From positions 1 to 63,217 of IMG/VR virus record IMGVR_UViG_3300021379_000848: a stretch of DNA of 63,217 nt; one strand, written 5' to 3'. The stretch is from a virus. Taxonomy: Duplodnaviria > Caudoviricetes. Positions 18,370 through 33,899 of this stretch are shown piece by piece. The position numbers and the translations under genes are program-made. Under the pieces are notes generated by a model. It was not told the DNA's origin, did no database searches, and saw only the letters and a list, made by a program, of their open reading frames with translations. Each line of letters opens with the position of its first letter. Within the stretch, counting starts at the first letter, position 1.

Positions 18370-18387
18370 TTTAGTTTATTTTAAAAT

Positions 18388-18772: not shown

Positions 18773-18774
18773 AA

Positions 18775-18939: not shown

Positions 18940-19016
18940 TTTTATAATATTTAATTTAATTAATATACGTTTTATTTTATCAATCATAGTTCGTGTTCGT
19001 TTTGTAAGCATTTAAT

Positions 19017-19106
19017 TTATTTTGTGAAATATGCTATTGTTAATGAAACTATTGCTAATATGCACCACCAAAATAAAAAGGTTCCAATTCCTTTTTCTTT
19101 GCTCAT
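19017..19106 (-). CDS. 29-aa membrane peptide (not in ORF track)
   Basis: MSKEKGIGTFLFWWCILAIVSLTIAYFTK; ATGA overlap with the upstream stop. Confidence 0.55.
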   Translation of the reverse strand: MSKEKGIGTFLFWWCILAIVSLTIAYFTK

Positions 19107-19834
19107 AACACTTCTGTTTTAAAATATTGATTAGGATCAAATTCAGTATCTCTAACAAACATATCGTATGCGATACTAGCTTCTGAAACTTTATTCTCGC
19201 CTCTTGCATAAAAATCAGGAGAGCATTCAAATAACCTTATTTGATGTGTCTTCTTACAAATAGCAATGTATAGCATCTCATAACCGAACAAAGACGAATA
19301 TATATAAGCTTGACTATCGTAATTGTATTTTTTAGCACTATACCTGAAATTTTCAATATCAGAAGTAGTCTTCAAATCTATTACGAGCTTTTCATCGTGA
19401 TTAATTATATCAGCTTTACCTTTCCATAAATTGTTGGCTAATTCACCAATAGAAGGAACTTCATATTCTACGTTGCCATTTCTAATTAGATCATGTACTA
19501 CATTGTTCCTTAATAACTTTTCAGTTAATAAATTGGTTAGATCTACTTCTTTTTGTAATAAAGCCATTTCACCTCCAGTAGCTTCTTTGTATATCTTATT
19601 GTTCCGAGTAGGAGTATCGATAATTTTATATCTACCTAATTTTTCAGGTTCTAAAATAGCTGTATGAAAATAACCTCCTATAAGTAAGTTAGGTGTTTTT
19701 TCTGTAGGTTTACCAAAGCTAGTTGGATCAGTCAATAACTTACCGATATCTGAATTACTTAAATAATTTCTACCAAAATCGCCATAATAGTTATTATCAT
19801 CCCTTAGCTTTTCTATAATTTCTTCTCTAGTCAT
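19103..19834 (-). CDS. RecE/exonuclease VIII-like PD-(D/E)xK nuclease
   Basis: YLSNSDI, GGYFHTAILEP, KGKAD...DLKTT, YNYDSQAYIY. Confidence 0.85.
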   Translation of the reverse strand: MTREEIIEKLRDDNNYYGDFGRNYLSNSDIGKLLTDPTSFGKPTEKTPNLLIGGYFHTAILEPEKLGRYKIIDTPTRNNKIYKEATGGEMALLQKEVDLTNLLTEKLLRNNVVHDLIRNGNVEYEVPSIGELANNLWKGKADIINHDEKLVIDLKTTSDIENFRYSAKKYNYDSQAYIYSSLFGYEMLYIAICKKTHQIRLFECSPDFYARGENKVSEASIAYDMFVRDTEFDPNQYFKTEVL

Positions 19835-19837
19835 ATA

Positions 19838-20377
19838 TTAGAGCTTTTTTAATTCAGCTTCCAATTCTTTACTGAAGTTATATTTAGATTTAATAGCTTC
19901 TAATGTACCACCTTTCTTGATGTAATCAACAGCTTTCTTGAATTTCTCGTCGTTTTTATCTGTGATACTCGCTTTAGTTACTTGCTTACCATGTGTGTTT
20001 GTAGCGTCGCTATCGGCTGTATCGTCAATTAAAAACAAGTTACCTAAAGCATATTTTTTAGCATATGAAGATGCACTACCAAATTTTTGAGGTAAATTCA
20101 TACCTCTTTGATCCATATCAACCCCTACAACAGCATTAGCAATGATTTCATCTTCACCGTCTGTTAGTATTGCCTGAGAAGTTAATATACACATATCGTT
20201 AACAGTAGATAAACTTTCTTCAATTCTTAAAGATAAACTATGTTCTTTGAGAAAAGGTTTGGAAGCTTCTAAAATATCTTCCGCAGATCGGTAATTGTAC
20301 TTTCCAAAAGAGTTGTATCTACTCTTTTTTGCTTTTAATCCTACTTGGATTTTACTTAATTTTTCATTTAATTTCAT
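19838..20377 (-). CDS. erf: ERF-family single-strand annealing protein
   Basis: NSFGKYNYRSAEDIL and QKFGSASSYAKKYALGNLF. Confidence 0.9.
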   Translation of the reverse strand: MKLNEKLSKIQVGLKAKKSRYNSFGKYNYRSAEDILEASKPFLKEHSLSLRIEESLSTVNDMCILTSQAILTDGEDEIIANAVVGVDMDQRGMNLPQKFGSASSYAKKYALGNLFLIDDTADSDATNTHGKQVTKASITDKNDEKFKKAVDYIKKGGTLEAIKSKYNFSKELEAELKKL

Positions 20378-20417
20378 ATATATAATATTACGTGTTTACT
20401 ATTTATTTTAACTTAAC

Positions 20418-21176
20418 TTAAAGATAATCAAGCACTTGTTCCGGTGGAACGTTTTCTATTAGCTTGGTTATTGCCTCTCTTTTTATTTGAGAAACTCTGA
20501 CAAATCCACTTTCCATAGTCATACCTAATTTATTAGCGATCTCTTTAGCGGGCACTCTGTCGCAATCTAACCCATAAGACATTCTCACAATATCATACTC
20601 TTTCTTAGTTAAATACTTATTCATGATACCTAATAAATAAACGTTTAACATGTTCGTATTGTAAATTTTTCTTGTGTCTTCGATTTCAAATATTTTATCT
20701 TCACTATTTGCAGCTAGAGCATCAGTGCTTTCAAATACACTATTGAAAAACATTTCGGTTATTTTCTGATCTTGACCATTGTTTTTACGTATCTCAATTA
20801 ACTTGTGTTCTGGAATTTTTATGCTTCCTCTATTGATATCAATTGCTCTTCTGATAGCTCCCTTAATTCTTTTAGATACAAAAGACTTCATTCTATTTTC
20901 AGGATCAGGAGATTCCATGACAATATCCCAGTCTAATTTATCTACTGCAGCTACTAAACCTAAACTACCTTCTTGTATTAAGTCATTTATACTTAACACA
21001 CCTGAAGCTTGATCTGACGTAGAAAACTTTCTTGCTATAGTTTCGACGAGTGGCAAGAAGAATATTACCAGTTCATCTCTACTATATTCATCCCACATTT
21101 TGCCTTCTAAACGACCAATACTCTGCTCTTTATCTTTTTTATACCTTACGTAGTTTTGTATATTGTATTTTTTCAT
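20418..21176 (-). CDS. Phage-encoded sigma70-family sigma factor
   Basis: Region 2 LPLVETIARKF...DLIQEGSLGLVAAVDK...RIKGAIRRAI; region 4 HTH AKEIANKLG...RVSQIKREAITKL. Confidence 0.9.
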   Translation of the reverse strand: MKKYNIQNYVRYKKDKEQSIGRLEGKMWDEYSRDELVIFFLPLVETIARKFSTSDQASGVLSINDLIQEGSLGLVAAVDKLDWDIVMESPDPENRMKSFVSKRIKGAIRRAIDINRGSIKIPEHKLIEIRKNNGQDQKITEMFFNSVFESTDALAANSEDKIFEIEDTRKIYNTNMLNVYLLGIMNKYLTKKEYDIVRMSYGLDCDRVPAKEIANKLGMTMESGFVRVSQIKREAITKLIENVPPEQVLDYL

Positions 21177-21616
21177 AAAACTTCTACTATTTCTAACTCA
21201 ACAATTGCATTTTTTTCTGAAATTAAACAGTTATTAAAAGATTTAATAGCATTTTTACTGTTTTTTAAATCAAAAATTTTATCTCCATTTATATCTTGAA
21301 GTCTATCACCAAGAGAAATACAACCGTTTAACTGAGAAACAAAGTTTGCAGGGTGAAATTTACATTCAGTTCTACCTTCAACTCCGTATATTTCCCATAA
21401 GCTCTTATCGAATTTTGGAGAGTATTCATATTTACACTCGAAAATTCCAGTAGGAATACTACTGATCATTTTTTCATTGTTTAACCAACCGCGTTCTAAA
21501 CTTAAGGATGCAAATACAGGAGCATTGTTTCCGTCAAAAACGGTACATCTACCATAAGTGTAGCCCTCTGTAACTTTAAAACGTTCAATTAAAATTTTAA
21601 ATTCACTTTTTTTCAT
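21173..21616 (-). CDS. DUF5675-like protein (putative cell-wall peptidase/endolysin)
   Basis: LER...SSIPTG...FHPAN...LNGCISLG His/Cys pattern. Confidence 0.65.
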   Translation of the reverse strand: MKKSEFKILIERFKVTEGYTYGRCTVFDGNNAPVFASLSLERGWLNNEKMISSIPTGIFECKYEYSPKFDKSLWEIYGVEGRTECKFHPANFVSQLNGCISLGDRLQDINGDKIFDLKNSKNAIKSFNNCLISEKNAIVELEIVEVL

Positions 21617-21622
21617 TTTTTT

Positions 21623-21736
21623 TTACTTATACAAATAGGTTAATAATTTTGCAATACATACTACTGGTATTGCTACTATGGCACAGGCCCATAAAAATGA
21701 GACTATCCCGTCAATTACTCTGTTTCCTTTTTCCAT
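21623..21736 (-). CDS. 37-aa membrane peptide (not in ORF track)
   Basis: MEKGNRVIDGIVSFLWACAIVAIPVVCIAKLLTYLYK fills the gap between genes. Confidence 0.55.
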   Translation of the reverse strand: MEKGNRVIDGIVSFLWACAIVAIPVVCIAKLLTYLYK

Positions 21737-22362
21737 TGTTTTAGATCTTTATTTAATAATTCTTTTTCTCTTTTTAATTCCTCTGTTAAATTTCTATTTA
21801 TAGTTCTAGATGAAACATTTAAATGTGTCGCTAACTTTTTTATTGTTATCTTCTCATGCATCTCATGAATGTATAGCATTGTTTCGTAAACATCATCTGG
21901 ATCAATTGTTTTTTTTCTACCAAAAAAGCTACCTACTATTTTCAGTTTTTCTGTTATACTTAAATTACAACTATCCTTAAATATAATTTTTCTAAGTTTA
22001 TTACGAGGAGGTTCTTCTAAATCACTCATATAAACGTCATAAACCATTTTATTAAGCACATCTCCATATACATTAAAAGTTACAAATCCATACTCTTTAT
22101 TTGAAAGCATTTTAGCCAGCTCTAAGAAGCTATCAGGGTCCAGCTTAGGGTTTAAGTACCATAACACCAAAAGATGCCATTTAAGTGATTTAAACGTATT
22201 TACCTTAGCCTTACTTTTAAACAAATCGTAGTACTCGTATGTCCCTTCTTTGTAATAAGCTCCCCAATAATATACTTCATCGGGTTTATCGTTGATTGGA
22301 TCTCGTCTATATACTATCCGATGTTTAACTAAATAAGAAAAGTCACGTTCAAATTGAGGCAT
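21715..22362 (-). CDS. DNA-binding protein with C-terminal HTH (candidate replication initiator/regulator)
   Basis: ITIKKLATHLNVSSRTINR; a GCGACA element overlaps its start. Confidence 0.6.
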   Translation of the reverse strand: MPQFERDFSYLVKHRIVYRRDPINDKPDEVYYWGAYYKEGTYEYYDLFKSKAKVNTFKSLKWHLLVLWYLNPKLDPDSFLELAKMLSNKEYGFVTFNVYGDVLNKMVYDVYMSDLEEPPRNKLRKIIFKDSCNLSITEKLKIVGSFFGRKKTIDPDDVYETMLYIHEMHEKITIKKLATHLNVSSRTINRNLTEELKREKELLNKDLKQWKKETE

Positions 22363-22400
22363 TAGTCCTTTACTTTATTTATATAACGCCCTTGTGTCGC
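22356..22400 (+). repeat. GCGACA...TGTCGC element copy 1 (left end degenerate)
   Basis: GAGGCAttagtcctttactttatttatataacgcccttgTGTCGC aligns to 56507-56551. Confidence 0.7.
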
Positions 22401-22505
22401 ATAATATTCCCACTCTGAAATATCAATGTCTCTTAACATATGTTGGATCCAATCAAAATCATAATAGTCAAGATCGTTAATTAATGATTCTTTTACTTTT
22501 CCCAT
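22362..22505 (-). CDS. Hypothetical 47-aa protein (not in ORF track)
   Basis: MGKVKESLINDLDYYDFDW...; stop overlaps the next ATG. Confidence 0.55.
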   Translation of the reverse strand: MGKVKESLINDLDYYDFDWIQHMLRDIDISEWEYYATQGRYINKVKD

Positions 22506-22508
22506 TAC

Positions 22509-22733
22509 TCATAACTTTTGTATTTCTTCTTTTACTTGTCGCCAATAATTTAATTTAGCTTGTAAATCCCAACTTTCGTATTTTGGATAAAATAGTTCTA
22601 ATTGCTTTACAATCTCATCAACAGATACTAAAGCACATCGTTTGGCTTTATTTTTATTATCATTTTCATTGTAAAAAGGCAACAGTGGACTAAAAATCTC
22701 TACTAATCTCTTTGCTTCTTCTTTTGGTGTCAT
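22509..22733 (-). CDS. Hypothetical protein (MTPKEEAK...YWRQVKEEI family)
   Basis: Motif recurrent in Bacteroidota phages. Confidence 0.75.
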   Translation of the reverse strand: MTPKEEAKRLVEIFSPLLPFYNENDNKNKAKRCALVSVDEIVKQLELFYPKYESWDLQAKLNYWRQVKEEIQKL

Positions 22734-23077
22734 TACTCTTTAAATTTTAATTCTTCACCTGTTAAAGCAAAGTACAGGTTTTGTAGTTGGTGAACGTATT
22801 TAATATGAAAATCATTGTGCTCAAAACCACTCAGATATTCGAAAATATCTACATCACTCTTTAGGTAATAAAACGAATCATCCCACGCTTTATGTTTCTT
22901 AAACCCAAACTTCAACAACCATTCTTCTGTTATTGGGATAGGATAAAGATGGTTTGTGTCTGACAAATCTTTTACCGAAACCTTTACAAAGTCCCTAAAA
23001 ATAATTTTTTCATCAACTAAATTAATGTCATCAAAAGGGTAAACATAATTCCCAATTCTTAGTTCTGTTGCTTTCAT
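22733..23077 (-). CDS. Hypothetical protein, ELRIGNYV/HQLQNLYFALTGEEL family, paralogue A
   Basis: Shares three conserved blocks with 23081-23482. Confidence 0.85.
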   Translation of the reverse strand: MKATELRIGNYVYPFDDINLVDEKIIFRDFVKVSVKDLSDTNHLYPIPITEEWLLKFGFKKHKAWDDSFYYLKSDVDIFEYLSGFEHNDFHIKYVHQLQNLYFALTGEELKFKE

Positions 23078-23080
23078 AAT

Positions 23081-23482
23081 CTATTGTTGTATTTTTAATT
23101 CCTCACCTGTCAAAGCAAAATATAAATTTTGTAGTTGGTGAATGTATTTGATGTCTTTACAAACAACTCTTCCATTACAAGTCAATTCAATAGTTGGGTT
23201 CTTAAAATAAATATCAGACCAAAGTGATATATCTAAATTATCATCCACATAAAGAGAATATAACTTACGTTCTTCTTTCTTAAAACCAAACTTCAACAAC
23301 CATTCTTTTGTTATTGGGATAGGAGTTATTTTATTAATTTTACGTGGAAATCCAATACTATCTTCAAAGTAACCTAATTCAACATCCCAATCATTTCGTC
23401 CTTCGATAGATGTCTGCAATACAATCACTTTTTGTGAAACATAATTAACATAATTCCCAATTCTTAGTTCTTTAACCTTCAT
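23081..23482 (-). CDS. Hypothetical protein, same family, paralogue B
   Basis: Tandem paralogue. Confidence 0.85.
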   Translation of the reverse strand: MKVKELRIGNYVNYVSQKVIVLQTSIEGRNDWDVELGYFEDSIGFPRKINKITPIPITKEWLLKFGFKKEERKLYSLYVDDNLDISLWSDIYFKNPTIELTCNGRVVCKDIKYIHQLQNLYFALTGEELKIQQ

Positions 23483-23498
23483 CTTTTAAATATTTTAA

Positions 23499-23585
23499 AT
23501 TTAACATTATGTAAAGTTCATTAAAACGAAACTTTACAAGGTCGTTAGAGTGCATTAAAACGGTGTTTTACGCTCACCGTTGTGC
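23499..23585 (-). repeat. attC-like hairpin plus a half copy
   Basis: CTCTAAC...TGTAAAGTT-TCGTTTTAATG-AACTTTACA...GTTAAAT, preceded by GCACAAC...CGTTTTAATG. Confidence 0.45.
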
Positions 23586-23587
23586 TA

Positions 23588-23935
23588 TTAGGACAGGTGC
23601 AACGTTATTTTAAATAGATTTCTAATTTCTTTAAGATCTGTAGTTGTTCCATTTTTTTTAAGCAAATGTACAAGTTCGTGTATAATTCCTTTATCTGTTA
23701 AGCACACATAAGTCGGAGTTTCTTTTAAAAAACATATTACACAAGCTAAATGAAGTGCATCAGGCAAATTCTTTAAGAAATCAGAGTCGCTCATATCGCA
23801 AAAGTTTAAATAATGCTCACGTAGCTCTTGATATGATAAACTAAACTTTATTCCTTCTGATAAGTATTCAATTGGCATAATCAGTACTTTATAATAGATC
23901 AGATATAGTATATCTCGAGTACTTGATAGCTTCAT
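23588..23935 (-). CDS. Hypothetical protein (probable start 23878)
   Basis: ORF in early arm; IIHELVH resembles HExxH. Confidence 0.65.
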   Translation of the reverse strand: MKLSSTRDILYLIYYKVLIMPIEYLSEGIKFSLSYQELREHYLNFCDMSDSDFLKNLPDALHLACVICFLKETPTYVCLTDKGIIHELVHLLKKNGTTTDLKEIRNLFKITLHLS

Positions 23936-24104
23936 ATATATTACCTACTTTAGTACTTCTGTTAAAAAACACTGTTGATCTATACTTTAAAGGAACATCC
24001 GTAAATTGACATAAATATTCAGGACCAACTGAATCCTTTACGAATTCGAACTTTGTATACCGGATGTATAGCACAACCGCTCTAATTAGTTTTAATAAGA
24101 TCAT
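23889..24104 (-). CDS. Hypothetical protein
   Basis: Overlaps the upstream stop (ATGA). Confidence 0.55.
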   Translation of the reverse strand: MILLKLIRAVVLYIRYTKFEFVKDSVGPEYLCQFTDVPLKYRSTVFFNRSTKVGNIYEAIKYSRYTISDLL

Positions 24105-24595
24105 AGTTTTAATTTTAATATTTCTCTAGTTATAATGTTTTCATTAGCATTACGAACAGATTGTTTTTCGGTTTCGTAATAGTTCCAGTAAGCTGAAATT
24201 GTATCTCCAGGTACTTTGTACTCATCAGGCATACATTGAGGAGGTTCTGTAAACTCATCGCCTTGTATATGCGCTGGAGGAGTTGCTAAAAAATCTCTAC
24301 ATTTAGAAATAGTCAAATGTTGCTTTCCATATCTTTTAGTATATTCTTTACCTAGAGCAATCATATGCTCATACAACCACATGTAAGTAGATCTAGATTT
24401 TCTAGCCCATACCGTTGATGGATGATTTAAATGAGCTTGACGATAAGGTACGTTACTTTTTTGTTCCGCATTACCATAACAATGGTGTGCAGTACAAAGC
24501 ATTTGAGCCGATTCTAAAATCATTTTAACCTTATGCTTGTCGTAAAAACAAGCCGCTGCTTTAGCTGGATCTGAGTGTAAGTAAAATATGTTCAT
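24101..24595 (-). CDS. Pyrimidine-dimer DNA glycosylase (DenV)-related protein
   Basis: MNIFYL...DKHKVKMILESAQML...HLNHPSTVWAR...EYTKRYGK. Confidence 0.75.
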   Translation of the reverse strand: MNIFYLHSDPAKAAACFYDKHKVKMILESAQMLCTAHHCYGNAEQKSNVPYRQAHLNHPSTVWARKSRSTYMWLYEHMIALGKEYTKRYGKQHLTISKCRDFLATPPAHIQGDEFTEPPQCMPDEYKVPGDTISAYWNYYETEKQSVRNANENIITREILKLKL

Positions 24596-24600
24596 CTTTT

Positions 24601-24795
24601 TTAGTCGTTATATAGTGCTTCTTCAATATCATATGCTAAATCTTCAACAATTTCAGTTGCTAATTCAACTATTTGTATTAAACCGCGTCTTTCATATTCG
24701 TTTAGATCGTGAATTTTACCGTCATGTATAGCATTCACACAATCTAATAGATCTCTTGACGTGTTTTCAAATCTGCAATAACTCATATTTGCCAT
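24601..24795 (-). CDS. Conserved phage protein (MSYCRFENT family)
   Basis: Recognisable N-terminal motif; preceded by a motif copy. Confidence 0.8.
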   Translation of the reverse strand: MANMSYCRFENTSRDLLDCVNAIHDGKIHDLNEYERRGLIQIVELATEIVEDLAYDIEEALYND

Positions 24796-24830
24796 AATAA
24801 TATTTTTTTTTTAGTTTATTACTTTATCAA

Positions 24831-25124
24831 TTATAATTCGTATTTAGCTTGTAAACCTAATAATTTAACTCTATTCGCTGTTTCTATATAACACTCTCTT
24901 TTATAAGATCCTCTTTTGAAGTCTATAAAATTACCTGAAAAATAATCACCTGGTTCATTGCCATGAACTATCGCGAAACTATTCACTTTCCCATCTTGGA
25001 AATAAACCCCTAAGTCAAAGTTATTTCCTTTACTATCAGTATAAGGTCCTAAGTACATACAATAACTCCACATCCATTCTCTTGCTGATGGATAATATAG
25101 ATCAACTTCGTACAATGTTTCCAT
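24831..25124 (-). CDS. Hypothetical early protein
   Basis: Between two motif copies. Confidence 0.75.
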   Translation of the reverse strand: METLYEVDLYYPSAREWMWSYCMYLGPYTDSKGNNFDLGVYFQDGKVNSFAIVHGNEPGDYFSGNFIDFKRGSYKRECYIETANRVKLLGLQAKYEL

Positions 25125-25192
25125 AATAATATTTTTTTTTATTTGTTTTACGTTTATTTTATCAATTATTATTCGTGTTCGGACTGTAAGTT

Positions 25193-25366
25193 TTAATATA
25201 AAACATCCATAACGTAGTCAGGTTCTAACCCATACTCTTCATATAAGATAGTTTCAGGATTTTCACCTTCCATAACTCTATTTCTAATTGAATTAATTTC
25301 TTTATCTGCGTGCTTACCTGACATACCGTCACGTTCCATTAGCACTCTTTTTAGTGAATATGCCAT
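25193..25366 (-). CDS. Hypothetical 57-aa protein (not in ORF track)
   Basis: MAYSLKRVLMERDGMS...EEYGLEPDYVMDVLY. Confidence 0.7.
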   Translation of the reverse strand: MAYSLKRVLMERDGMSGKHADKEINSIRNRVMEGENPETILYEEYGLEPDYVMDVLY

Positions 25367-25370
25367 TATA

Positions 25371-25982
25371 TTAGTGAAATATTAATCCTACTTTTTTGTT
25401 TTTACTAAACCATTTGGTTGCGAATAGATCAACCTTCGATGCATTCACAAATCCCGCTAAGTTTAGCTCCTCTTCTGATTTAAAAATGTCAGTGAATCGA
25501 TCATTTTGCTTATCAATCAGGTCAATTTGTTTACCGCTATTAGAAAAGATCACGTCGAAATTATCTGGTAGATCAGTTTCTTTAAACAATTGCACCATGT
25601 TAGTGTAGCTATAAAACTTTACATTCGGGTTGTGTATAGCAATCTCTATCCACTTTTGCAAATACGCTCTAGAATAGTAGTCGCCAGAGTCATGAACTCG
25701 CACATAGTCTGGTTTTTTCTTTGCAATATCAGCATTCATAGCGTCAACAAACTTATCTGTTTTACTTAGTTCATAACGTTTTTCAAAAGCTGGTTTTACA
25801 TTAGACCATATATACGCACCTTTACGGGCATAACAGAACTTTACACATTCTTTAGCCATAGGACAGATCAGTTTACCTGATTGTGATTTGTAAGCAGGTA
25901 AGCCAAAGTTGAATACTTTAACTCCTAATTCTTTAGAAGTTTTCTTTAACTTTGAATTCTGTGTTAATAGTGATATGGCCAT
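25371..25982 (-). CDS. Gp88-like radical-SAM-related protein
   Basis: CPMAKECVKFCYA Cys cluster, RVHDSGDYY, FYSYT. Confidence 0.7.
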   Translation of the reverse strand: MAISLLTQNSKLKKTSKELGVKVFNFGLPAYKSQSGKLICPMAKECVKFCYARKGAYIWSNVKPAFEKRYELSKTDKFVDAMNADIAKKKPDYVRVHDSGDYYSRAYLQKWIEIAIHNPNVKFYSYTNMVQLFKETDLPDNFDVIFSNSGKQIDLIDKQNDRFTDIFKSEEELNLAGFVNASKVDLFATKWFSKNKKVGLIFH

Positions 25983-26329: not shown

Positions 26330-26542
26330 TGTTATTAAATTTTATTTGTTATTATTTTTATTATTCAATTGTATTATCAATGTTAGATCGTGCTCAGTCT
26401 GTAAAAAATAAAAGATCATTTAGCCGAGAGTACCTTTCTTACGTTTGGTGTTCAGTGTATAGCAACTCACTACATCCCCCTCAAGACTTTTTATGCTTTT
26501 GTGTCGGTTAGCTAAATAATCTTCTAACATAACAAATAACAA

Positions 26543-26806: not shown

Positions 26807-27221
26807 CTAGTAATTCATCTACCACTGCGTCTTGCATTCTGTCTTGTACTTCGAAAAATAGTTCTTCAATTGCGCCTTCAACGAAATTAGCATCTAAATC
26901 GTTAACATAAATCTTCGTTTCATGACAAGGACCTTCTATTGCTGAAACTAAAGCATCAACAAGTTCATCGTCATAGTAATACACGTCTTCACTAAAAATG
27001 ATGTTATTAGGGTCTGATGTAGCTATAAATAGATCATATCCGTCAGCTGTTCCTTCCTCGTATACATAAAAATCACAATCTCTAGAGTCAAATACATCTG
27101 TTAATTCTACTTCATAGTAGTCCAACACTGCTTTTCTTTGAAGTTCTGAGTCATTCTCTTGTTTTTCACCGAAACCTTTAGCTTCTAGTCTTTCGTTGAT
27201 TAATTCATCTGTTATTTTCAT
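26787..27221 (-). CDS. Very acidic hypothetical protein (possible DNA mimic)
   Basis: Strong Asp/Glu enrichment; probable start MKITDE. Confidence 0.7.
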   Translation of the reverse strand: MKITDELINERLEAKGFGEKQENDSELQRKAVLDYYEVELTDVFDSRDCDFYVYEEGTADGYDLFIATSDPNNIIFSEDVYYYDDELVDALVSAIEGPCHETKIYVNDLDANFVEGAIEELFFEVQDRMQDAVVDELLDEGYEE

Positions 27222-27303
27222 GTTATTTGTTTTAAATAGAGTAGCTGTTACTGTCCAGTCATTAATCACCGTATTCTAGACCCGTGATCACTACTCTCGG
27301 TTA

Positions 27304-27570
27304 TTAAAAGTAGATTGTCAATCCGTCGTTTTTGATGTATAGCACACTGTCTAAGTTGAACGTGCGGAAACCATTGTCATTCATAGAGAATACAATTACG
27401 TTGTTTACTGCAGATGGATCATAAGATAAACCATTACCATTCACACCTTTCTTTACGCCAAATCTAGCGTTCATTGTTCTGATCTTACCATTCTTCTTTA
27501 CAAAAGTTACGGAAAAGATTTTACCATTTTGTCTTAATTGATCGAAGATCACTTGTTTTAAATTTTTCAT
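27304..27570 (-). CDS. SH3/WYL-like small phage protein
   Basis: FSVTFVKKNGKIRTMNAR...GFRTFNL. Confidence 0.65.
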   Translation of the reverse strand: MKNLKQVIFDQLRQNGKIFSVTFVKKNGKIRTMNARFGVKKGVNGNGLSYDPSAVNNVIVFSMNDNGFRTFNLDSVLYIKNDGLTIYF

Positions 27571-27884
27571 TTTTTTCTATTATTTTTAATTGTTTCTTTA
27601 AATTCTTTTACTGGGAAATACCCTACACCTATAAAACTAATTTCAGGATCCCATCTATACTGTATTCTAACATACACCCTGCCGTCTTTTTTCAACGTAA
27701 AATTATTGAATTCAGTAGCTTCAGGTATAGATAACTGCACTAACTCAAGAGCAACGTCAATAATGTTTTTATACTCACTTTGTATTTCTTTAGGTAAATA
27801 CTCGTATCCTTTGTTTTGAAGGGTAAGCTCAGGAAAAGCTTTGTAAATTCCCATTAACAAATCACCGTTATTCGCTCTTCTCAT
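27567..27884 (-). CDS. Hypothetical protein (probable start MRRAN)
   Basis: Packed ORF. Confidence 0.65.
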   Translation of the reverse strand: MRRANNGDLLMGIYKAFPELTLQNKGYEYLPKEIQSEYKNIIDVALELVQLSIPEATEFNNFTLKKDGRVYVRIQYRWDPEISFIGVGYFPVKEFKETIKNNRKK

Positions 27885-28146
27885 AAGTTTTCTTTTTAAA
27901 TGCATCACCAAAACGGATATCATGTGTACTATAAGCATTAAATGCTTTGTCTCGATGAGGGATAGGAACACTATTAAAAATAGTAGCTATCTCACTTATA
28001 GTAAGTTCACCCCACGAATATACTCTGCGAGAAACGATATCTTGTAATATACCGGGGTACTCCACAGCTAATACTTCTACTACGTCGTCAATTAAGACGT
28101 CAGTTAAAAAAGAATTTAATGTAATTTCAGTTTGAATTGTTTTCAT
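27868..28146 (-). CDS. Hypothetical early protein
   Basis: Preceded by motif copy 28178. Confidence 0.7.
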   Translation of the reverse strand: MKTIQTEITLNSFLTDVLIDDVVEVLAVEYPGILQDIVSRRVYSWGELTISEIATIFNSVPIPHRDKAFNAYSTHDIRFGDAFKKKTYEKSE

Positions 28147-28180
28147 AATTATAGTTTTTATTTGTTATTCAATTAATTTA

Positions 28181-28552
28181 TCAGTCAGTGATCGTGTTTA
28201 GATTGTAAGTTTCAACATACGCTTTCCACTTATTTACTTTTTTCAAATATTTTAAGTAATATAGGTATAGCATTTTTGCCCTCTCATCTTCAGAATCAAC
28301 TAACACACAAGTACCATCCTCGTTTCTTCTGTTTAATTGGTAAGATGTCCAACACCCATTCTGCCTGCGGATATACCCTGAAGAAAACGATGCTAACCTT
28401 AATTTCGTTTGTGATACAAAAGGTACACCCATCATGGTGTTACCAAAAGAACATGGTACTGGAAATTCAAACTCCCTAGTTCCGTTAACTCTTTGACGAT
28501 CCGTTGTAACTTCAACAGCTCCTAGTTTAAGTAGTTCACTATATACATTCAT
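28181..28552 (-). CDS. Hypothetical early protein
   Basis: Follows the RNA cluster; its stop lies inside a motif copy. Confidence 0.7.
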   Translation of the reverse strand: MNVYSELLKLGAVEVTTDRQRVNGTREFEFPVPCSFGNTMMGVPFVSQTKLRLASFSSGYIRRQNGCWTSYQLNRRNEDGTCVLVDSEDERAKMLYLYYLKYLKKVNKWKAYVETYNLNTITD

Positions 28553-28574
28553 AATTATAGTTTTTATTTGTTAG

Positions 28575-28662
28575 TGGACGTGGCAGGAATCGAACCTGCG
28601 TTTTGAAGCATTTGGACTCGGTAACCTGTTATTTATTCGCTTCGTCTAACCATTTCACGCCC
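28575..28662 (-). ncRNA. tmRNA-like RNA reduced to the tRNA-like domain (88 nt)
   Basis: Acceptor GGGCGTG/CACGTCC with G3.U70 and discriminator A; stemless D-loop AAATGGTTAGAC; helix GAAGCG/TGCTTC; T-arm GCAGG-TTCGATT-CCTGC; no anticodon arm. Confidence 0.75.
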
Positions 28663-28665
28663 AAT

Positions 28666-28747
28666 TGCAGCACCTACCTTCAATACTATCCGTCGATAGC
28701 GTCCTACTTTGGGTGGCATTACGGTATCGTAGAATACCTGTGCTGCA
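28666..28747 (-). ncRNA. Putative 82-nt multibranch RNA
   Basis: Closing stem TGCAGCAC/GTGCTGCA; internal hairpins GGTAT/ATACC and CTATC/GATAG. Confidence 0.5.
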
Positions 28748-28748
28748 T

Positions 28749-28962
28749 TGAGAAGCGGATAGACCTGGAATGTTAGGGATGCTCCCGGATTACACTAAGG
28801 AATGCACGTCATTTACTAGTATGCCCTGACTTATAACCTCAGTGTACGCTACCTAGACTTACACCCTTTTCTCTGTTTATACTATCTTTCACCGTCATCG
28901 AGCCGTTTCTCTCATCCCGCTAAGGAATTACGCCTTTAATCCGGTTTCCAGACTTCTTCTCA
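28749..28962 (-). ncRNA. Putative ~214-nt structured RNA
   Basis: Nested pairings TGAGAAG/CTTCTCA, CTGGAA/TTCCAG, CCGGATTA/TAATCCGG, TAGTAT/ATACTA; begins 24 nt downstream of motif copy 28986; no ORF in track. Confidence 0.55.
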
Positions 28963-28992
28963 GTTTTATTTTTTATTCAATTAATTTATCAT

Positions 28993-29208
28993 TTAACGAT
29001 CGTGCTCAGTTTGTAAGCACTCTAATATATATTCATACACCTGCTCTTCTATTTTATTAGAAGCCAATCTAAGCTCCAACGCTTCCCTATCTACTGCTCC
29101 GATCAGATTATATGTTAACTCATAGTCAATTCTCTGACGATCAAATAAAACACCGGAAAGTTTAGAAACAATCTTCGCTATAGCCCTCTCTTTTATCTCG
29201 CTATTCAT
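28993..29208 (-). CDS. Hypothetical early protein
   Basis: ORF ending inside a motif copy. Confidence 0.7.
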   Translation of the reverse strand: MNSEIKERAIAKIVSKLSGVLFDRQRIDYELTYNLIGAVDREALELRLASNKIEEQVYEYILECLQTEHDR

Positions 29209-29446
29209 CTTCTACCATCGATTTAAAATCAAAATCCCTAGTATACTTCAAACGTCGTTTAGCTTTAGCAAGTAACTGCTCGTAAAGCTCTACTTCGGTC
29301 ATGTATAGCAATTCCATCTTATCGCTATCATCATAGTAAAGATCATCCTCCCAAGATAACATGTCCGCTACATAATCTTCAACCACAAATATGCACTTAG
29401 AAACCACTCGGTCAATCACCTCATTTATATCTTCTGATTTATCCAT
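29201..29446 (-). CDS. Hypothetical acidic early protein
   Basis: Preceded by motif copy 29486. Confidence 0.7.
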   Translation of the reverse strand: MDKSEDINEVIDRVVSKCIFVVEDYVADMLSWEDDLYYDDSDKMELLYMTEVELYEQLLAKAKRRLKYTRDFDFKSMVEDE

Positions 29447-29645
29447 ATTAATCTATTTTTTTATATCTAATTAACTTCATTTATTTTATCACATGCTTAT
29501 CGTATCCAGATCGTAAGTACTACAAACTCCGTAATACCAACAATGTCAACGACAAACCTATCCGTATCCGCACTCCAATTCCAAACAAACCAAAGGATAT
29601 AAAATATTTACCCAATAATTCACTATAAGGGGTGGTTACCCAGTA

Positions 29646-29672
29646 TGACAAAGTGTCAGTGACAAAATGTCG
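29646..29672. repeat. Tandem TGACA-N3-TGTC(A/G) palindromes
   Basis: TGACAaagTGTCA g TGACAaaaTGTCG. Confidence 0.6.
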
Positions 29673-29707
29673 TGGTAGTGGAGCACTCGGTAATGAGTTT
29701 CAAAAAT

Positions 29708-29753
29708 GCGACACTAGCCTGTTATATAATATATAGTAGCACCCAATTGTCGC
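29708..29753 (-). repeat. GCGACA...TGTCGC element copy 2
   Basis: GCGACActagcctgttatataatatatagtagcacccaatTGTCGC. Confidence 0.85.
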
Positions 29754-29780
29754 ACTTTTTACGCTCTTTTTTTACTCTGA

Positions 29781-30365
29781 TTACTTATCTAGAATGGTGA
29801 GTACTACGCCAACTATGTCACTTAATTCTGCATATTTTCGTCTATCACTGTCAGCTGTATATTTAAATACACCCATACTGTAAAGACTAGTTCTTTTTTC
29901 ACCTCTTCTTCTTTGTAGTTCGCTGAGTAATTCTTGTAAATCCCATATTTTACCTGTTGATATCCATCCCTTGTGAGGTGAATCACTAGCAACATCGTTA
30001 AGTCTTTTTAGCTCTCCACGGATGAGGTCATCTAGGGTTTCTAGATCAGCATTGAATAAATCGGTAGGTACAGATTTTCTCTTCAGTTTTATACAGTAAT
30101 CTACTATTGATTCTTCGAAATCGTCGAAATCGTCTTTAAATAGATCTTTGTATAGCTCTTTAAATTTGCCGTATTTCACCTGTTTACCGCCTAGGTAGTA
30201 GGTTACGTCGCCATCTGGATCTTCTATGGAAGTATAACCAGGAACTACGCTTACTATGCCTCCGAATAGGTGGACTTCAGCTTTTATAAATTCATTTACT
30301 TGTATTTCGTAATCTGAAGAGAACCTTATATAGTCCTCGTGGTGGTGTCTTTTAATTAATTTCAT
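29781..30365 (-). CDS. Hypothetical early protein, 194 aa
   Basis: Preceded by motif copy 30391. Confidence 0.75.
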   Translation of the reverse strand: MKLIKRHHHEDYIRFSSDYEIQVNEFIKAEVHLFGGIVSVVPGYTSIEDPDGDVTYYLGGKQVKYGKFKELYKDLFKDDFDDFEESIVDYCIKLKRKSVPTDLFNADLETLDDLIRGELKRLNDVASDSPHKGWISTGKIWDLQELLSELQRRRGEKRTSLYSMGVFKYTADSDRRKYAELSDIVGVVLTILDK

Positions 30366-30410
30366 TGTTATTGTTTTTGTTACATTAATATTATCGATCG
30401 GTGGTCGTGT

Positions 30411-30599
30411 TTAGTTTGTAAGAATTTGTTTCATTAAATCCTCTATTAACATTTCTTCAGTTTCGCCGTCTTCTAGATCGCAGCAGCACTCTACAAAGTC
30501 AGTTACTGATTTTAATAAATCTTCTTTACCCATGTAGTTAGACTCGAATCTAAAGGCATTTAAGGTATCTTCATTCCAATAAAATTTCTTATTTTCCAT
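30411..30599 (-). CDS. Hypothetical acidic protein
   Basis: ORF track. Confidence 0.7.
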   Translation of the reverse strand: MENKKFYWNEDTLNAFRFESNYMGKEDLLKSVTDFVECCCDLEDGETEEMLIEDLMKQILTN

Positions 30600-30613
30600 A
30601 ATATTGATAATTT

Positions 30614-30874
30614 TTAAGCAGGAGATAATTCCCAGCTAACTATTTCTACCTCAACCCAGCCTTTTTCACTGTGGTTTCTATATACTCCTAATCCGTCTTT
30701 AGTTAGAATTTCTACTAACCTTCCGGCTGCTCGCCATAGATCAGGGTCAGGTGTTTCATCATGTTCGTGGTCGTACATTATGTCGCCTCTACACTGGTAG
30801 AACACATCGTCTACGTCATTCTCTACTAGTTCAAAATCCCAACCGTTTACGGTAATATTTTCACATAATTCCAT
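30614..30874 (-). CDS. Hypothetical acidic protein
   Basis: ORF track. Confidence 0.7.
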   Translation of the reverse strand: MELCENITVNGWDFELVENDVDDVFYQCRGDIMYDHEHDETPDPDLWRAAGRLVEILTKDGLGVYRNHSEKGWVEVEIVSWELSPA

Positions 30875-30876
30875 AT

Positions 30877-31080
30877 CTACTTAGTATTTAATAATTGATT
30901 CTTCATTTCCTCTAAGGCTAATTTATACCCAAAGTTCTTAGACAACTGCATTAATAAGAAGTCAGCTGATCCGTGGTTAGCTTTCGTGAATTCCTCGAGA
31001 TACTCCGCGGTAGGAGTCGCTACAATTCCTCTATCTAACATATTAAATTGTTCAGTTAAAAAGGTTTCTAATGTTTTCAT
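30877..31080 (-). CDS. Hypothetical early protein
   Basis: Preceded by motif copy 31107. Confidence 0.7.
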   Translation of the reverse strand: MKTLETFLTEQFNMLDRGIVATPTAEYLEEFTKANHGSADFLLMQLSKNFGYKLALEEMKNQLLNTK

Positions 31081-31196
31081 TGTTATTATTTTTTGTTACA
31101 CATATATTATCAATCAAAGTTCGTGTTTATTCTGTAAGTGCTATACACGGTGACCTCATCTACCGATCAATCTCTAAATCTAAATACGGTGTAGGA

Positions 31197-31233
31197 CGGA
31201 GTCTACTCTTCCGGTCTTATCTCAGAACCAGGC
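31197..31233. repeat. 37-bp dispersed repeat (second copy 32650-32686)
   Basis: CGGAGTCTACTCTTCCG.TC.TAT.TCA.AA.CAGGC in both places. Confidence 0.8.
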
Positions 31234-31327
31234 CATATAGTTTATCAAAAAGAAACCGTGTTTACGGTGCAGGTGCTATACACCCTGGGGGATTAGGTGC
31301 ATACACTTCAGTTTTTTATATTTAACA

Positions 31328-31483
31328 TTATACATATTTCTTATTCTCGTACTGAAGTTCATTATCGTAAAACTCAAAAGCCTCATCATCACCATTGCTA
31401 TCAGGACTCTCTAAGTAATACTCAAACACTTCTCTAATTAACGTTAGTTCATCATCTGTAAATCTTCTTGTATAGTATTTCAT
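31328..31483 (-). CDS. Hypothetical 51-aa acidic protein (not in ORF track)
   Basis: MKYYTRRFTDDELTLIREVFEYYLES... Confidence 0.6.
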   Translation of the reverse strand: MKYYTRRFTDDELTLIREVFEYYLESPDSNGDDEAFEFYDNELQYENKKYV

Positions 31484-31503
31484 ATCATTTGTTTTAATTG
31501 TTT

Positions 31504-31644
31504 TTAGTCTGATATTTTTTCAACGATCACAGCGTTAAGAGCCTTGGATATGATCCTAGCATGTTTCCAGCTGTAACAGTTGGCGTAAAACTTTCCTGAT
31601 CTGTCCCTGAATAGGAACGTCATCTCAGGTTTTTCTAAATTCAT
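31504..31644 (-). CDS. Hypothetical 46-aa protein (not in ORF track)
   Basis: MNLEKPEMTFLFRDRSGKFY...; preceded by motif copy 31676. Confidence 0.65.
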   Translation of the reverse strand: MNLEKPEMTFLFRDRSGKFYANCYSWKHARIISKALNAVIVEKISD

Positions 31645-31735
31645 AATATATCTATTTAATTGTTATTCACTTATGTTATCGATCAATGATCGTATTTGTT
31701 CTGTATGTATAGCACCCCGAGGGGCGACCCAAGGC

Positions 31736-32056
31736 CTACTCAGTAGCAGGCTCTAGGTCAATTCTCTCAATCACTAAGTGACGTACATTTGTTGGCATGT
31801 CTGTTGACTGTGACCAGTATCCGCGCTTATTCCAGCATGGCATTAGGTTTAACTTTGGAAGCATTGCTTCGAGTACATCGTCGTGATTGTACGTAATCTG
31901 TTGATTTTTGTTGTTCACGAAGGTGATGATTTGGTTTCGACCCAGCCAGCCTTTTCGGACTACGAAGTTTTTTCTCGTGATCGGTGGGAAAATTGCCGCC
32001 AATTCTTTTTTACTTAGTTTTGCGATTGCTTTTGTAATTGCTTCTTGATTTTTCAT
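31736..32056 (-). CDS. Hypothetical early protein
   Basis: Preceded by motif copy 32105. Confidence 0.75.
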   Translation of the reverse strand: MKNQEAITKAIAKLSKKELAAIFPPITRKNFVVRKGWLGRNQIITFVNNKNQQITYNHDDVLEAMLPKLNLMPCWNKRGYWSQSTDMPTNVRHLVIERIDLEPATE

Positions 32057-32138
32057 GATAAATTGTTTTTAATTGTTATTATTTATTTTTGTTATTCACT
32101 TATGTTATCGTTTATTCGTCGTGTTTGTTTTGTAAGAC

Positions 32139-32348
32139 TTAGAATCTTTCATAGTCTTTATGATCTAACACGTGATAGTACGAGTACCCTTTATGGTTGA
32201 ATTTCGGACGTTCATATTCTTTGTAATACTTGTTTGGTATTTCAGATATTCTGAACCCTATGTAGTAACAGAAGTCGTCTTTAAATTTCATCTTTTTTGA
32301 TCTTGGTGTTTTTGTTCTTGAGTGGTTGTGTCCTACTACTAAATCCAT
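32139..32348 (-). CDS. Hypothetical early protein
   Basis: Between motif copies. Confidence 0.65.
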   Translation of the reverse strand: MDLVVGHNHSRTKTPRSKKMKFKDDFCYYIGFRISEIPNKYYKEYERPKFNHKGYSYYHVLDHKDYERF

Positions 32349-32424
32349 ATTTAATTGTTTTTAATTATTATTATTTTCTTTATTCACTTATATTATCAAC
32401 TTTACTTCGTATCCAGTTTGTAAG

Positions 32425-32559
32425 TTAGTAATTTTCTAATATATCTTGTATTGAGTCGTTCGTTTTTGGGTGGATCGTATTAATCCAAAACCATTCTACT
32501 TCTTCGTTTGTCGGATTTTTAGATAAAAAATCTAAACATTCTAATTTTAATTCTTTCAT
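32425..32559 (-). CDS. Hypothetical 44-aa protein (not in ORF track)
   Basis: MKELKLECLDFLSKNPTNEEVEWFW...; between motif copies. Confidence 0.65.
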   Translation of the reverse strand: MKELKLECLDFLSKNPTNEEVEWFWINTIHPKTNDSIQDILENY

Positions 32560-32735
32560 TTTGTTATTGTTATTTTCTTTATTCGCTTATATTATCAATA
32601 GTACCCCGTGTTTACTCTGTAAGTGCTATACATGCTATACACTCCAGGTCGGAGTCTACTCTTCCGATCCTATTTCAAAATCAGGCTAAAATTATCCAGA
32701 CCAAAAGCTTGATCTGGATAGATATTTTTTTAGGT

Positions 32736-32882
32736 TTAGTTATCTATAGCTTGTTCTATCAGGCTTTTTAATAAGTCTAAAGCTTCTGGGCCTTTTTTAG
32801 TACCTTTTGATATATGATCCCATAAGATATCTTCTAAGCAGTAAAATTGATCTTTGTTTAGTTTAAAATTTTTAGTTTGCAT
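32736..32882 (-). CDS. Hypothetical 48-aa protein (not in ORF track)
   Basis: MQTKNFKLNKDQFYCLEDILWDHI...; motif copy upstream, hairpin TATCCAGA/TCTGGATA downstream. Confidence 0.65.
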   Translation of the reverse strand: MQTKNFKLNKDQFYCLEDILWDHISKGTKKGPEALDLLKSLIEQAIDN

Positions 32883-33057
32883 TTTAAATTGTTTTAAATT
32901 GTTATTTATTTTTCATTCAACTATATTATCAAAGTAAGACCGTGCCTAGACTGTAAGATGCTATACATGCTGTACACGCCGTTGGCGTACGTATATAACG
33001 GGTCAACCCCGAGCCCGTGTAAGGACCCAGGGAAACCCTGAATGGATAAAATGCATG

Positions 33058-33258
33058 TTATGATTCCAGATCCGGCTCAGTTATATGCCTCCAGGCCGAA
33101 GACTTAAGCCGAATGTTTTCAAGCTTTAGGTTTGTGTTCTTGAAGTCCAGCTCATCGGCTAGCTCAGCCAGTTTGTTGAGGTTTTCGATCTGGGTCGCAT
33201 CGTCAAGATGCTTATATAGTTCATGGAATAATTCTCCTACTTGTCTGTTGTACCACAT
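33058..33258 (-). CDS. Hypothetical coiled-coil protein
   Basis: ORF track. Confidence 0.6.
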   Translation of the reverse strand: MWYNRQVGELFHELYKHLDDATQIENLNKLAELADELDFKNTNLKLENIRLKSSAWRHITEPDLES

Positions 33259-33277
33259 AATTTATTGTTTTAAGGTG

Positions 33278-33436
33278 TTAATCGCGGATGAATATGCCGT
33301 TATACATGCTCCCGAACAAATTGTCATATAGGTCCTGGATTTCTTCGGTCGTGAACCCGGATAGGTCAAACTCACAGCCAAATTCTGATTCGATCTCGGC
33401 ACATAGCCACTCGCGTTTTGATGATTTGTAACTCAT
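33278..33436 (-). CDS. Hypothetical 52-aa protein, first early gene (not in ORF track)
   Basis: MSYKSSKREWLCAEIESEFGCEFDL...; preceded by motif copy 33464. Confidence 0.65.
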   Translation of the reverse strand: MSYKSSKREWLCAEIESEFGCEFDLSGFTTEEIQDLYDNLFGSMYNGIFIRD

Positions 33437-33899
33437 AATTATTATATTCTTGATTCACCTATATTATCAAAACCAGGCCGTGTCCAGACTGTAAGATGCT
33501 ATACACCTCGCTGCGCTCGGCTTGTAAGCCGGTATGCAATCGCACCACGGATCCGCAACCCCAAATCCGCACCTGAAAATTAGTACGGAATCCCAAACCA
33601 GTACACAAAAACCTTCCGGAATCCCAAAAACCCGACCCGAAATCCAAAAACCGAACGGGGGCTGGGTAAAAGAAACAGCTTTCCCAATGAGCCGGGTAGT
33701 GAAAATATGAGTATATTACCCCGAACCTCTATATTTCTAACATTTTTTTTTAACCTTTACATCTCTACTACTTCTTTTTAGGTGTTTTTCACGGGTACGG
33801 ATAGATTTTTTTTTGTCTTATGACATGCTGTTATGTGGAAATATTAAAAAAATTTTTCTCTTACGAGAATATACAAACGATAGGGAGCGAGTATAAAGT

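Follow-up and report, generated by a model that had tools for sequence, protein, structure and literature searches.

Candidate phage-specific promoters of about 45 nucleotides precede the early and replication genes of an uncultured Caudoviricetes phage that encodes a sigma-70-family protein

The IMG/VR virus record IMGVR_UViG_3300021379_000848 (Duplodnaviria; Caudoviricetes), analysed here as one window of 63,217 bases that is the whole record (CheckV completeness 98%), carries a minus-strand block of early and replication genes headed repeatedly by one element, CTTACA-N7-YACG-N10-GATAA. Sequence comparison supports well the view that the 15–16 copies are phage-specific promoters of these genes. 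The further proposal, that a sigma-70-family protein encoded in the same block directs the host core RNA polymerase to them, we regard as evenly poised between right and wrong.

Exact matches to the pattern number 11 in the window, all on the minus strand, against an expectation of 0.00 from 100 shuffles. When one mismatch was allowed there were 15 copies (0 forward, 15 reverse), while the pattern read backwards gave 0 and 0, and with two mismatches there were 16, all on the minus strand between 18977 and 33495 (expected 0.33 ± 0.62; shuffle maximum 3). A sequence-only reading of the window had listed fifteen copies; this number stands as 11 exact and four one-mismatch copies, to which a sixteenth, degenerate copy (31242-31273) has to be added. 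That reading also had all copies facing the minus strand, as they do, and had named a comparable frequency on the opposite strand as evidence against a promoter class; we found none there. The density peak that it placed at 31-33.5 kb is likewise seen, with 8 of the 16 copies lying within 31.1-33.5 kb. Since CTTACA by itself is not enriched (47 occurrences versus 45.3 expected), the signal resides in the fixed combination of boxes.

Alignment of the 16 copies extended the element to about 45 nucleotides (nt), CTTACArnCTrAAYACGA-N8-TTGATAAwATAAnTGAA, followed by an A-rich leader. The description of the spacers as free in sequence therefore had to be given up, as the 7-nt spacer reads r-n-C-T-r-A-A and the 10-nt spacer ends in TT. 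Nor is the element tripartite, a fourth conserved block, wATAAnTGAA, coming directly after GATAA; its layout is that of a long block at positions 1-18 and another at 26-45, with some 7-8 variable bases between them. The GATAA core is present in 16/16 copies. Position 33 is T in seven, A in seven and C in two, the full GATAAT hexamer thus occurring in 7/16 copies, and a C precedes GATAA in 3/16. Position 40 is a conserved G in 14/16. A matrix built from the 16 sites gave them 26-50 bits, and no other position of either strand came to 12 bits; as these very sites had trained the matrix, the result is circular. A second matrix, derived mostly from related phages, scored them at 16.5-45.6 bits, with a best plus-strand match of 12.1 bits. 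The relatives' matrix also proposed a 17th site at 12649 (15.6 bits), which was dropped because the boxes proved absent on reading.

Fourteen of the 16 copies precede an ATG-started open reading frame (ORF) of 44-194 amino acids (aa) that begins 18-41 nt past motif position 40, the predicted transcription start. The first of the block, an exact copy at 33451-33495 with its predicted start at 33456, precedes a 52-aa ORF from 33436, and GTATAGCA abuts it upstream. Further exact copies, all on the minus strand like every site given here, lie at 32913-32957 (start 32918; 48-aa ORF from 32882), 32579-32623 (start 32584; 44-aa ORF from 32559; two GTATAGCA upstream), 32380-32424 (start 32385; 69-aa ORF from 32348), 32092-32136 (start 32097; 106-aa ORF from 32056), 31094-31138 (start 31099; 67-aa ORF from 31080), 30378-30422 (start 30383; 194-aa ORF from 30365), 28165-28209 (start 28170; 92-aa ORF from 28146) and 25146-25190 (start 25151; 97-aa ORF from 25124). 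Single-mismatch copies are found at 31663-31707 (CATACA; start 31668; 46-aa ORF from 31644), 29473-29517 (CTTACG; start 29478; 81-aa ORF from 29446), 26361-26405 (TTTACA; start 26366; 115-aa ORF from 26329) and 24811-24855 (TTTACA; start 24816; 64-aa ORF from 24795), the latter being the last copy upstream of an operon that holds a helix-turn-helix gene and the sigma gene. The exact copy at 18964-19008 (start 18969) is followed by small ORFs and then by genes for a primase-helicase, thymidylate synthase, MazG and ribonucleotide reductase. The claim that the motif heads early genes is therefore correct but too narrow: replication and recombination operons down to 19 kb carry it as well, and early plus middle is the better class. 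Mechanically called ORFs overlap five of the 16 copies, four of these at the 3' end of the preceding ORF and the copy ending at 19008 at the start of ORF 18775-19011.

Two copies lack such an ORF. The doubtful one at 31229-31273 has two mismatches and no ORF of its own, and overlaps a terminator-like hairpin (31255-31268, minus strand; ACCGTAAACACGGT then TTTCTTTTT) with a T-run; it may be a terminator or a decayed promoter. Terminator-like sites number 15 in 18000-34300 versus 5.7 ± 2.2 expected. The other, an exact copy at 28973-29017, has no ORF within 260 nt and heads an ORF-free stretch of about 430 nt with a tRNA-like end resembling that of transfer-messenger RNA (tmRNA). This match (28572-28662, minus strand, downstream of the site and inside the ORF-free 28553-28985) covers about 91 nt and scores 35.1 bits (gathering score 47; E = 2e-12) against the tRNA-like ends of RF00023. 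Its inner part is only 44 nt versus 326 in the model and holds GCGAATAAATAA, a possible mini tag frame. ARAGORN made no call at this stretch, whose full 421 nt fold at z = -2.06, and tRNA and Rfam scans returned nothing at gathering scores.

The architecture is retained in related phages, for which we used 16 IMG/VR loci found through the sigma protein, two genomes (G001 and G003) found through the terminase and 80 loci anchored on the primase-helicase. All 16 sigma-found loci, together with G001 and G003, share it on the sense strand. The pattern ACG-N10-GATAA occurs 100 times sense versus 3 antisense in 19 sources, a hard matrix gave 175 versus 1 in the 80 primase-anchored loci, and a softened matrix gave 298 versus 4 over all 98 sources; the scan of genome and relatives that the sequence-only reading had proposed bears out an almost wholly sense arrangement. 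The clade consensus is TTACAAACtAAATACGA-N9-(G/A/T)GATAATATAaATGTAAC. The motif is uniform inside each phage and variable between phages, with GATAAT as the constant part. The upstream box, TTACAAAC in the window, is found elsewhere as TTGCAGAC, TTTGCAAAC, ATCGAAA, CACAAA or ATGCAAAAT, and in two loci (L130 and L136) the element reads AAAAACGAC-N8-TATAAT, with TATAAT in place of GATAAT. The earlier idea of a phage-specific promoter class with an extra middle element is supported as to the class; the middle ACG is exchanged for ACA or AAT in some relatives and is thus the least essential box.

The distances to start codons point to where transcription would begin. Among 278 distinct related sites, the ATG of the ORF lies exactly at motif position 40 in 33, at positions 41-48 in 11, at 49-74 in 151 and beyond 75 in 38; a further 31 are without an ORF in the next 160 nt. 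In the remaining 14 the ATG lies at positions 34-38 (five of these at position 34); the seven position-38 cases, when read, mostly had an in-frame ATG near position 59 and are probably over-extended ORFs. The leaderless spike at position 40, followed by a gap, leads us to infer that transcription starts at this position, 8 nt past the last A of GATAA. In G001 and in locus L110 the sigma gene itself is leaderless, a motif copy abutting its ATG. With the start at position 40, GATAAT would become a -12 to -7 element. A search of sequencing runs with window positions 25000-34000 listed none, an outcome that counts neither for nor against such starts.

We compared this element with the promoters of the likely host group. 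According to PMC6847099, the promoter of the Bacteroidota primary sigma factor consists of TTTG at -33 and TAnnTTTG at -7; in F. johnsoniae there is hardly any variation at T-12, A-11, T-8, T-7, T-6 and G-5, and Bacteroidetes are said there not to express E. coli-type (TATAAT-type) promoters. TTTG is present at -8 to -5 in 0/16 window sites, and the sequence-only reading was right that the element does not resemble this consensus. We then counted genes with TAHHTTTG 8-75 nt upstream, using the reversed pattern as control. The window has 0/78, G001 0/57 and the related genome G004 2/50 (controls 1, 3 and 1), versus 14/77 (control 5) in the sigma-less elemo phage NC_055853 and 14/70 (control 1) in the sigma-less phage MW202828. 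In the elemo phage, boxes of the TATCTTTGCA type precede late genes and also open the early block; in the window and its relatives, no host-type promoter was found where the block begins. No sense-strand TAHHTTTG occurs in window non-coding DNA before any real gene. The only sense match, at 10490, lies before a minus-strand 77-aa ORF that is spurious, the real gene there being a plus-strand DUF5872 ORF. The pattern TTG-N17-22-TAnnTTTG has 12 matches in the window, none of them sense upstream of a gene at the motif sites. There is also no TTGACA-like hexamer at the 16-18 nt distance, TTACAr sitting 20 nt upstream of the hexamer, and a sigma-70 consensus scan of 18000-34300 gave 63 sites versus 71.7 ± 8.7 expected. 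We also considered GATAA as part of a -35 box (TTGATA) with a -10 box in the leader; such pairs occur in five sites only, without overall enrichment, and positions 49-55 are merely A-rich with the final T not conserved, so the idea was rejected.

In late genes, too, host-type boxes are missing. Their signal is another one: the ATG is preceded, at a distance of 6-7 nt, by a TATTAT or TAATAT hexamer (for example TATTATATCATG). Copies lie at 56540-56585 and 53835-53867 on the plus strand and at 20378-20400 on the minus strand, and their spacing implies, from sequence, leaderless mRNAs. Ten upstream regions, that of the window included, were collected for a comparison at the capsid gene; after this gene a near-identical (T)TATTATAT(C/T)ATG, with the ATG at the predicted start, is kept in all seven distinct relatives displayed. 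Two other candidates for late promoters were discarded: the word ACGTAATA, found 4 times versus 2.8 expected, and words from k-mer enrichment, which picked out conserved coding sequence through an ORF-calling artefact.

A candidate reader of the element is encoded within the block. The gene at 20418-21176 (minus strand) specifies a 252-aa sigma-70-family protein with regions 2 and 4, including a RIKGAI motif (region 2.4) and a RVSQIK motif (region 4.2) as in FliA. It matches PHROG 351 (E = 6.8e-24), passes the NCBIfam sigma-70 superfamily model TIGR02937 (48.4 bits, cut-off 42.9), falls just under the Pfam cut-offs for region 2 (23.8, cut-off 24) and region 4 (20.8, cut-off 24.1), and finds sigma chains in the PDB at E down to 9e-9. 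Among solved structures, Aquifex FliA matches its region 2 best (28.9 bits), RIKGAI and RVSQxK being common to both proteins. At E ≤ 1e-5, tblastn found no match in 50,697 deposited phage records, and there are at least 8000 metagenomic relatives, one of them from a Polaribacter metagenome-assembled genome (MAG). In close-clade loci, defined by a primase at least 60% identical and an upstream flank of at least 3.3 kb, a sigma gene lies about 2.5 kb upstream of the primase in 50/50 cases, compared with 0/5 distant loci; these five have neither sigma nor motif, and the same is true of NC_055853 and MW202828. Sigma residue 120, the K or R of (K/R)IPEH, aligns with the R of sigma-70 TIRIPVH and tracks the base before GATAA. 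K120 goes with T or C in four of five K lineages (L105 and L110, which share an open fork of the tree, counted as one, L110 having C and L105 G), and the fifth, L130/L136, has TATAAT instead of GATAAT; R120 goes with A or G in most lineages, L142 and L147 being exceptions. This covariation is suggestive of a link between sigma and motif. Next to the sigma gene, a gene at 21715-22362 (minus strand) for a 215-aa protein with a C-terminal helix-turn-helix is conserved in 40 related loci, and its product is a candidate co-regulator. By hhalign against the sigma protein (probability 0.6%) it is not a second sigma.

In the mechanism that we propose, the phage sigma (20418-21176), rather than the host primary sigma, would direct the host core RNA polymerase to the sites. 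GATAAT (positions 28-33) would serve as the -12 to -7 element, its GATAA core being as in sigma-28 -10 boxes, TTACA(A) (positions 2-7, about -38 to -33) would provide a -35-like contact, and AAYACGA (positions 12-18, -28 to -22) would be a clade-specific spacer element. Transcription would start at the conserved G/A at position 40, so that leaders in the window would be A-rich, 18-41 nt long and devoid of a Shine-Dalgarno sequence, and mRNAs of many relatives would be leaderless.

Several observations weigh against assigning the sites to this sigma. Its gene lies 12 kb inside the block, behind the same promoters; together with the lack of a host-type promoter at the block head, this leaves the first synthesis of sigma unexplained, so that the host holoenzyme must fire the sites at least weakly, or the virion must deliver something, or some other route must exist. 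In the phage sigma systems known to us, the host holoenzyme transcribes the sigma gene and sigma serves later genes. The protein misses the FliA/WhiG cut-off of TIGR02479 (41.8 versus 189.6 bits) and lacks the tryptophan pair of region 2.3, having K-R instead. The residue-120 covariation concerns about five lineages, and there are only four independent tree pairs, so that a sign test cannot reach significance, and the region 4.2 helix shows no visible covariation with the upstream box. The -35-like box stands 20 nt from the hexamer, further than the sigma-70 norm. Finally, as late genes bear a different non-host signal, either one sigma reads two classes or another factor exists.

The most serious alternative, though we consider it unlikely, is that the host primary-sigma holoenzyme reads the sites as early promoters, the long upstream blocks offsetting a poor -7 box, and that the phage sigma acts only late. 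Such a scheme is that of SPO1, phiEco32 and T4, and it would solve the start-up problem while agreeing with the placement of the sigma gene downstream of motif promoters, which in G001 and L110 adjoin it directly. GATAAT retains A-11 and T-7, the bases flipped out by every group-1 sigma, positions 33-40 (wATAAnTG) form a partial TAnnnnTG, and the late-gene signal TATTATATC-ATG could then be what the phage sigma reads. However, the TTTG missing from all 16 sites at -8 to -5 is near-invariant in F. johnsoniae (PMC6847099), and sigma-less relatives carry the canonical TAHHTTTG for early and late genes alike. The boxes also differ from phage to phage (TTACAAAC, TTGCAGAC, ATCGAAA, CACAAA), which would be unexpected for a conserved host sigma A, and chromosomal contigs of Flavobacteriaceae MAGs have only 1-2 copies.

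These chromosomal copies came from a search of species-representative genomes, in which the exact 31-nt clade pattern occurs in 36 stretches, mostly small phage contigs binned in assorted MAGs. In one genome (G009), motif copies on contig C7 (117,301 bases) recur at an interval of about 62.6 kb, as if a phage genome were present there twice in tandem, and further motif copies lie on the short contig C18. Among Flavobacteriaceae/Flavobacteriales MAGs, four carry one or two copies on contigs of 0.2-1.4 Mb, before genes for small, mostly secreted or unknown proteins. Exact or near-exact motifs stand before small genes in loci L238-L243 (G005:C2:141677 and 160150; G006:C1:4274; G007:C2:984323; G008:C1:632765), and in G005 two paralogous signal-peptide protein genes have 120 nt of upstream sequence in common. 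Such copies may belong to phage-derived morons or to host genes switched on by infection. The phage sigma as query found no homologue in these MAG genomes, and a host regulon was rejected on this ground and on the low copy number; the MAG findings support a Flavobacteriaceae host and disfavour a host regulon.

A bolder form of the phage-sigma proposal, which we think doubtful, is that the clade gave up host-type promoters altogether and runs its whole programme on its own sigma and promoters. As the sigma gene stands behind these promoters, sigma or another factor would then have to enter with the DNA, unless another priming route exists. We know of no precedent for a virion-delivered sigma factor.

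It is improbable, in our judgement, that the reader is instead an unrecognised polymerase or specificity domain delivered by the virion in the manner of N4-like or crAss-like phages, for example within the 2210-aa virion-type protein (2086-8718). A long, near-continuous, phage-specific signal at the first genes without any host-type promoter is what injected polymerases use, and start-up would be solved. The phage also has a crAss-type muzzle protein domain, and its giant gene closes the structural block, a place that in phi14:2 belongs to the virion RNA polymerase. Yet the giant protein has no DFDxD, D[FY]DxD is absent from the 2210-, 1913- and 1226-aa proteins, and no likeness to a single-subunit polymerase was found among the scanned ORFs of at least 500 aa. 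The giant protein has no match in Pfam, PHROG or the PDB, its BLASTP matches to phi14:2 gp66 and gp67 have only E ≥ 0.79, and its atlas neighbours are unnamed or carry large-polyvalent-protein domains scoring below 0.8. Sigma-less relatives have homologous giant proteins but host promoters, and early transcripts of phi14:2 are reported to have no common motif (preprint 10.1101/2020.03.07.982082). That the elements are not promoters, and are instead operators, RNA-level leader signals or replication or packaging repeats, we consider very improbable: the hairpin and T-run at the copy ending at 31273 and the five overlaps with mechanical ORFs would fit, but the strict orientation, the constant distance to start codons, the TATAAT-like hexamer (an actual TATAAT in L130 and L136) and the ATG at exactly position 40 in 33/278 sites, which an operator or replication repeat leaves unexplained, all argue otherwise.

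Other repeats accompany the earliest promoters. Six sense copies of GTATAGC(A) (31140-33504, minus strand) lie directly upstream of the copies ending at 33495, 32957, 32623 (two), 31273 and 31138; this repeat, GTATAGCA, appears from its placement to be an extra upstream element of the earliest promoters, and GC-rich hairpins precede the upstream-most sites that bear it. The heptamer GCTATAC (11403-31713 on the minus strand, 31140-33504 on the plus strand) has 24 copies versus 7.2 ± 2.7 expected, a number reached in 0/100 shuffles. Fourteen sense copies, with the consensus tGCTATACa, are spread over the early block and are mostly intragenic, and six reverse-complement copies adjoin the earliest promoters. 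In L130 and L136, both relatives, TGCTATAC occurs 9 and 11 times within the initial 10,000 bases of the locus. Direct repeats are found just upstream of the first promoter, at 33544-33646: a unit of about 20 nt, present three times, that ends in CGGAATCCCA when read on the plus strand, and a 14-nt unit, ACC..ATCCGCA, present twice. They could represent iterons of an origin or an array of binding sites. Another element, of 48 nt and bounded by terminal inverted repeats (TGCGACAAT...TATATAAC...CTTATGTCGC), is present in two copies about 80% alike, one in the early/late divergent region (~33896-33946, minus strand) and one just after the capsid gene (~56506-56554, plus strand), and may be a terminator or regulatory hairpin.

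The minus-strand block runs from 33.6 kb to 10.5 kb, with many tiny ORFs first and then genes for an Erf-type annealing protein, an exonuclease, the primase-helicase, thymidylate synthase, MazG and both ribonucleotide reductase subunits. The plus strand encodes GroEL, a GroES-like protein, terminase, portal and capsid proteins, along with giant proteins (1913 and 2210 aa) and a protein whose C-terminal domain is that of a crAss muzzle protein. The GroEL gene (34307-35857; PHROG 5725, E = 1e-132) and the GroES-like gene (48355-48960), both on the plus strand, have counterparts in the window's relatives and in phi14:2. The record ends (1-170 and 63048-63217, about 170 nt) repeat each other with one mismatch, which points to either circular permutation of the assembly or terminal redundancy. 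Judged by terminase, MW202828 (62% identity) is the closest named relative, followed by podophages of Flavobacterium, Cellulophaga, Tenacibaculum and Maribacter (~45%), and relatives of the large terminase subunit are encoded on more than 600 stretches; megablast of 28000-34000 against the 50,697 phage records gave no match. The mRNA leaders are A-rich and without a Shine-Dalgarno sequence, and so are those of Bacteroidota (PMC6847099). The host is likely to be a marine Flavobacteria-type bacterium of the Flavobacteriaceae. Our literature search, with supplementary files outside it, found no description of the motif or of a sigma in these phages.

These results define probable transcription signals for a widespread group of uncultured marine phages and reveal a sharp split within one phage lineage, in which sigma-less members use host promoters and sigma-bearing members have none, thereby posing the puzzle of how transcription begins. 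With the motif, hundreds of metagenomic phage contigs can be annotated for transcription units and for early and late genes. As genetic tools for Bacteroidota are scarce, a compact sigma with a promoter of about 45 bp that host sigma A probably ignores would be an orthogonal expression switch for these bacteria.

Phage sigma systems include gp28 and gp33/34 of SPO1, gp55 of T4 and gp36 of phiEco32. The phage described here resembles them in having its own sigma-70-family protein and repeated non-host promoters before genes. In those systems sigma serves middle or late genes and early promoters are of the host type, whereas here the motif stands at the first genes, the window has no host-type promoter, and the element is much longer, with about 45 nt and four blocks. 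T7-type polymerase promoters also have a long, near-continuous consensus that drifts between phages, but no single-subunit polymerase gene was found among ORFs of at least 500 aa, the start spacing differs, and the resemblance of AATACGA is a chance one.

Sigma-28 promoters, given in PMC12784957 as (-36)TCTAAAG(-30) and (-15)GCCGATAA(-8) with A-11 flipped out, are similar in geometry to within 1 nt, provided that the position-40 start places GATAA at -12 to -8; the -10 core of the sigma-28 type is CGATAA at -13 to -8. The window has an A-rich -35-like box about 18-19 nt upstream, with TTACAAAC at -38 to -31, and the phage sigma has FliA's RIKGAI and RVSQxK helices. However, the extended -10 GC appears to be absent, its bases varying (TT in the window; G, A or C in relatives), and the upstream box TTACAAAC seems unlike TAAA: the bases at -36 to -31 are ACArnC in the window and, among relatives, ACAAAC, compared with TAAA at about -34 to -31 for sigma-28. 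The AAYACGA box and the conserved start region are additional, and the sigma scores below the FliA/WhiG cut-off. On these sequence features, the relation to sigma-28 would be one of resemblance, not membership. Bacteroidota primary-sigma promoters belong to the same likely host group and likewise have A-rich leaders without a Shine-Dalgarno sequence, but all 16 sites lack their -7 TTTG. A preprint (10.1101/2020.03.07.982082) describes 'extended tripartite' middle promoters in phi14:2, which are also tripartite, phage-wide and found with a Flavobacteriaceae host; they differ in consisting of a canonical TTG-N20-TAnnTTTG plus a third block, in serving middle and late genes and in being read by the host polymerase, and no box is in common. 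The kind of system, a phage sigma with cognate promoters, is thus a known one; this case stands out by having so long an element, by placing it at the first genes and by having lost host-type promoters completely.

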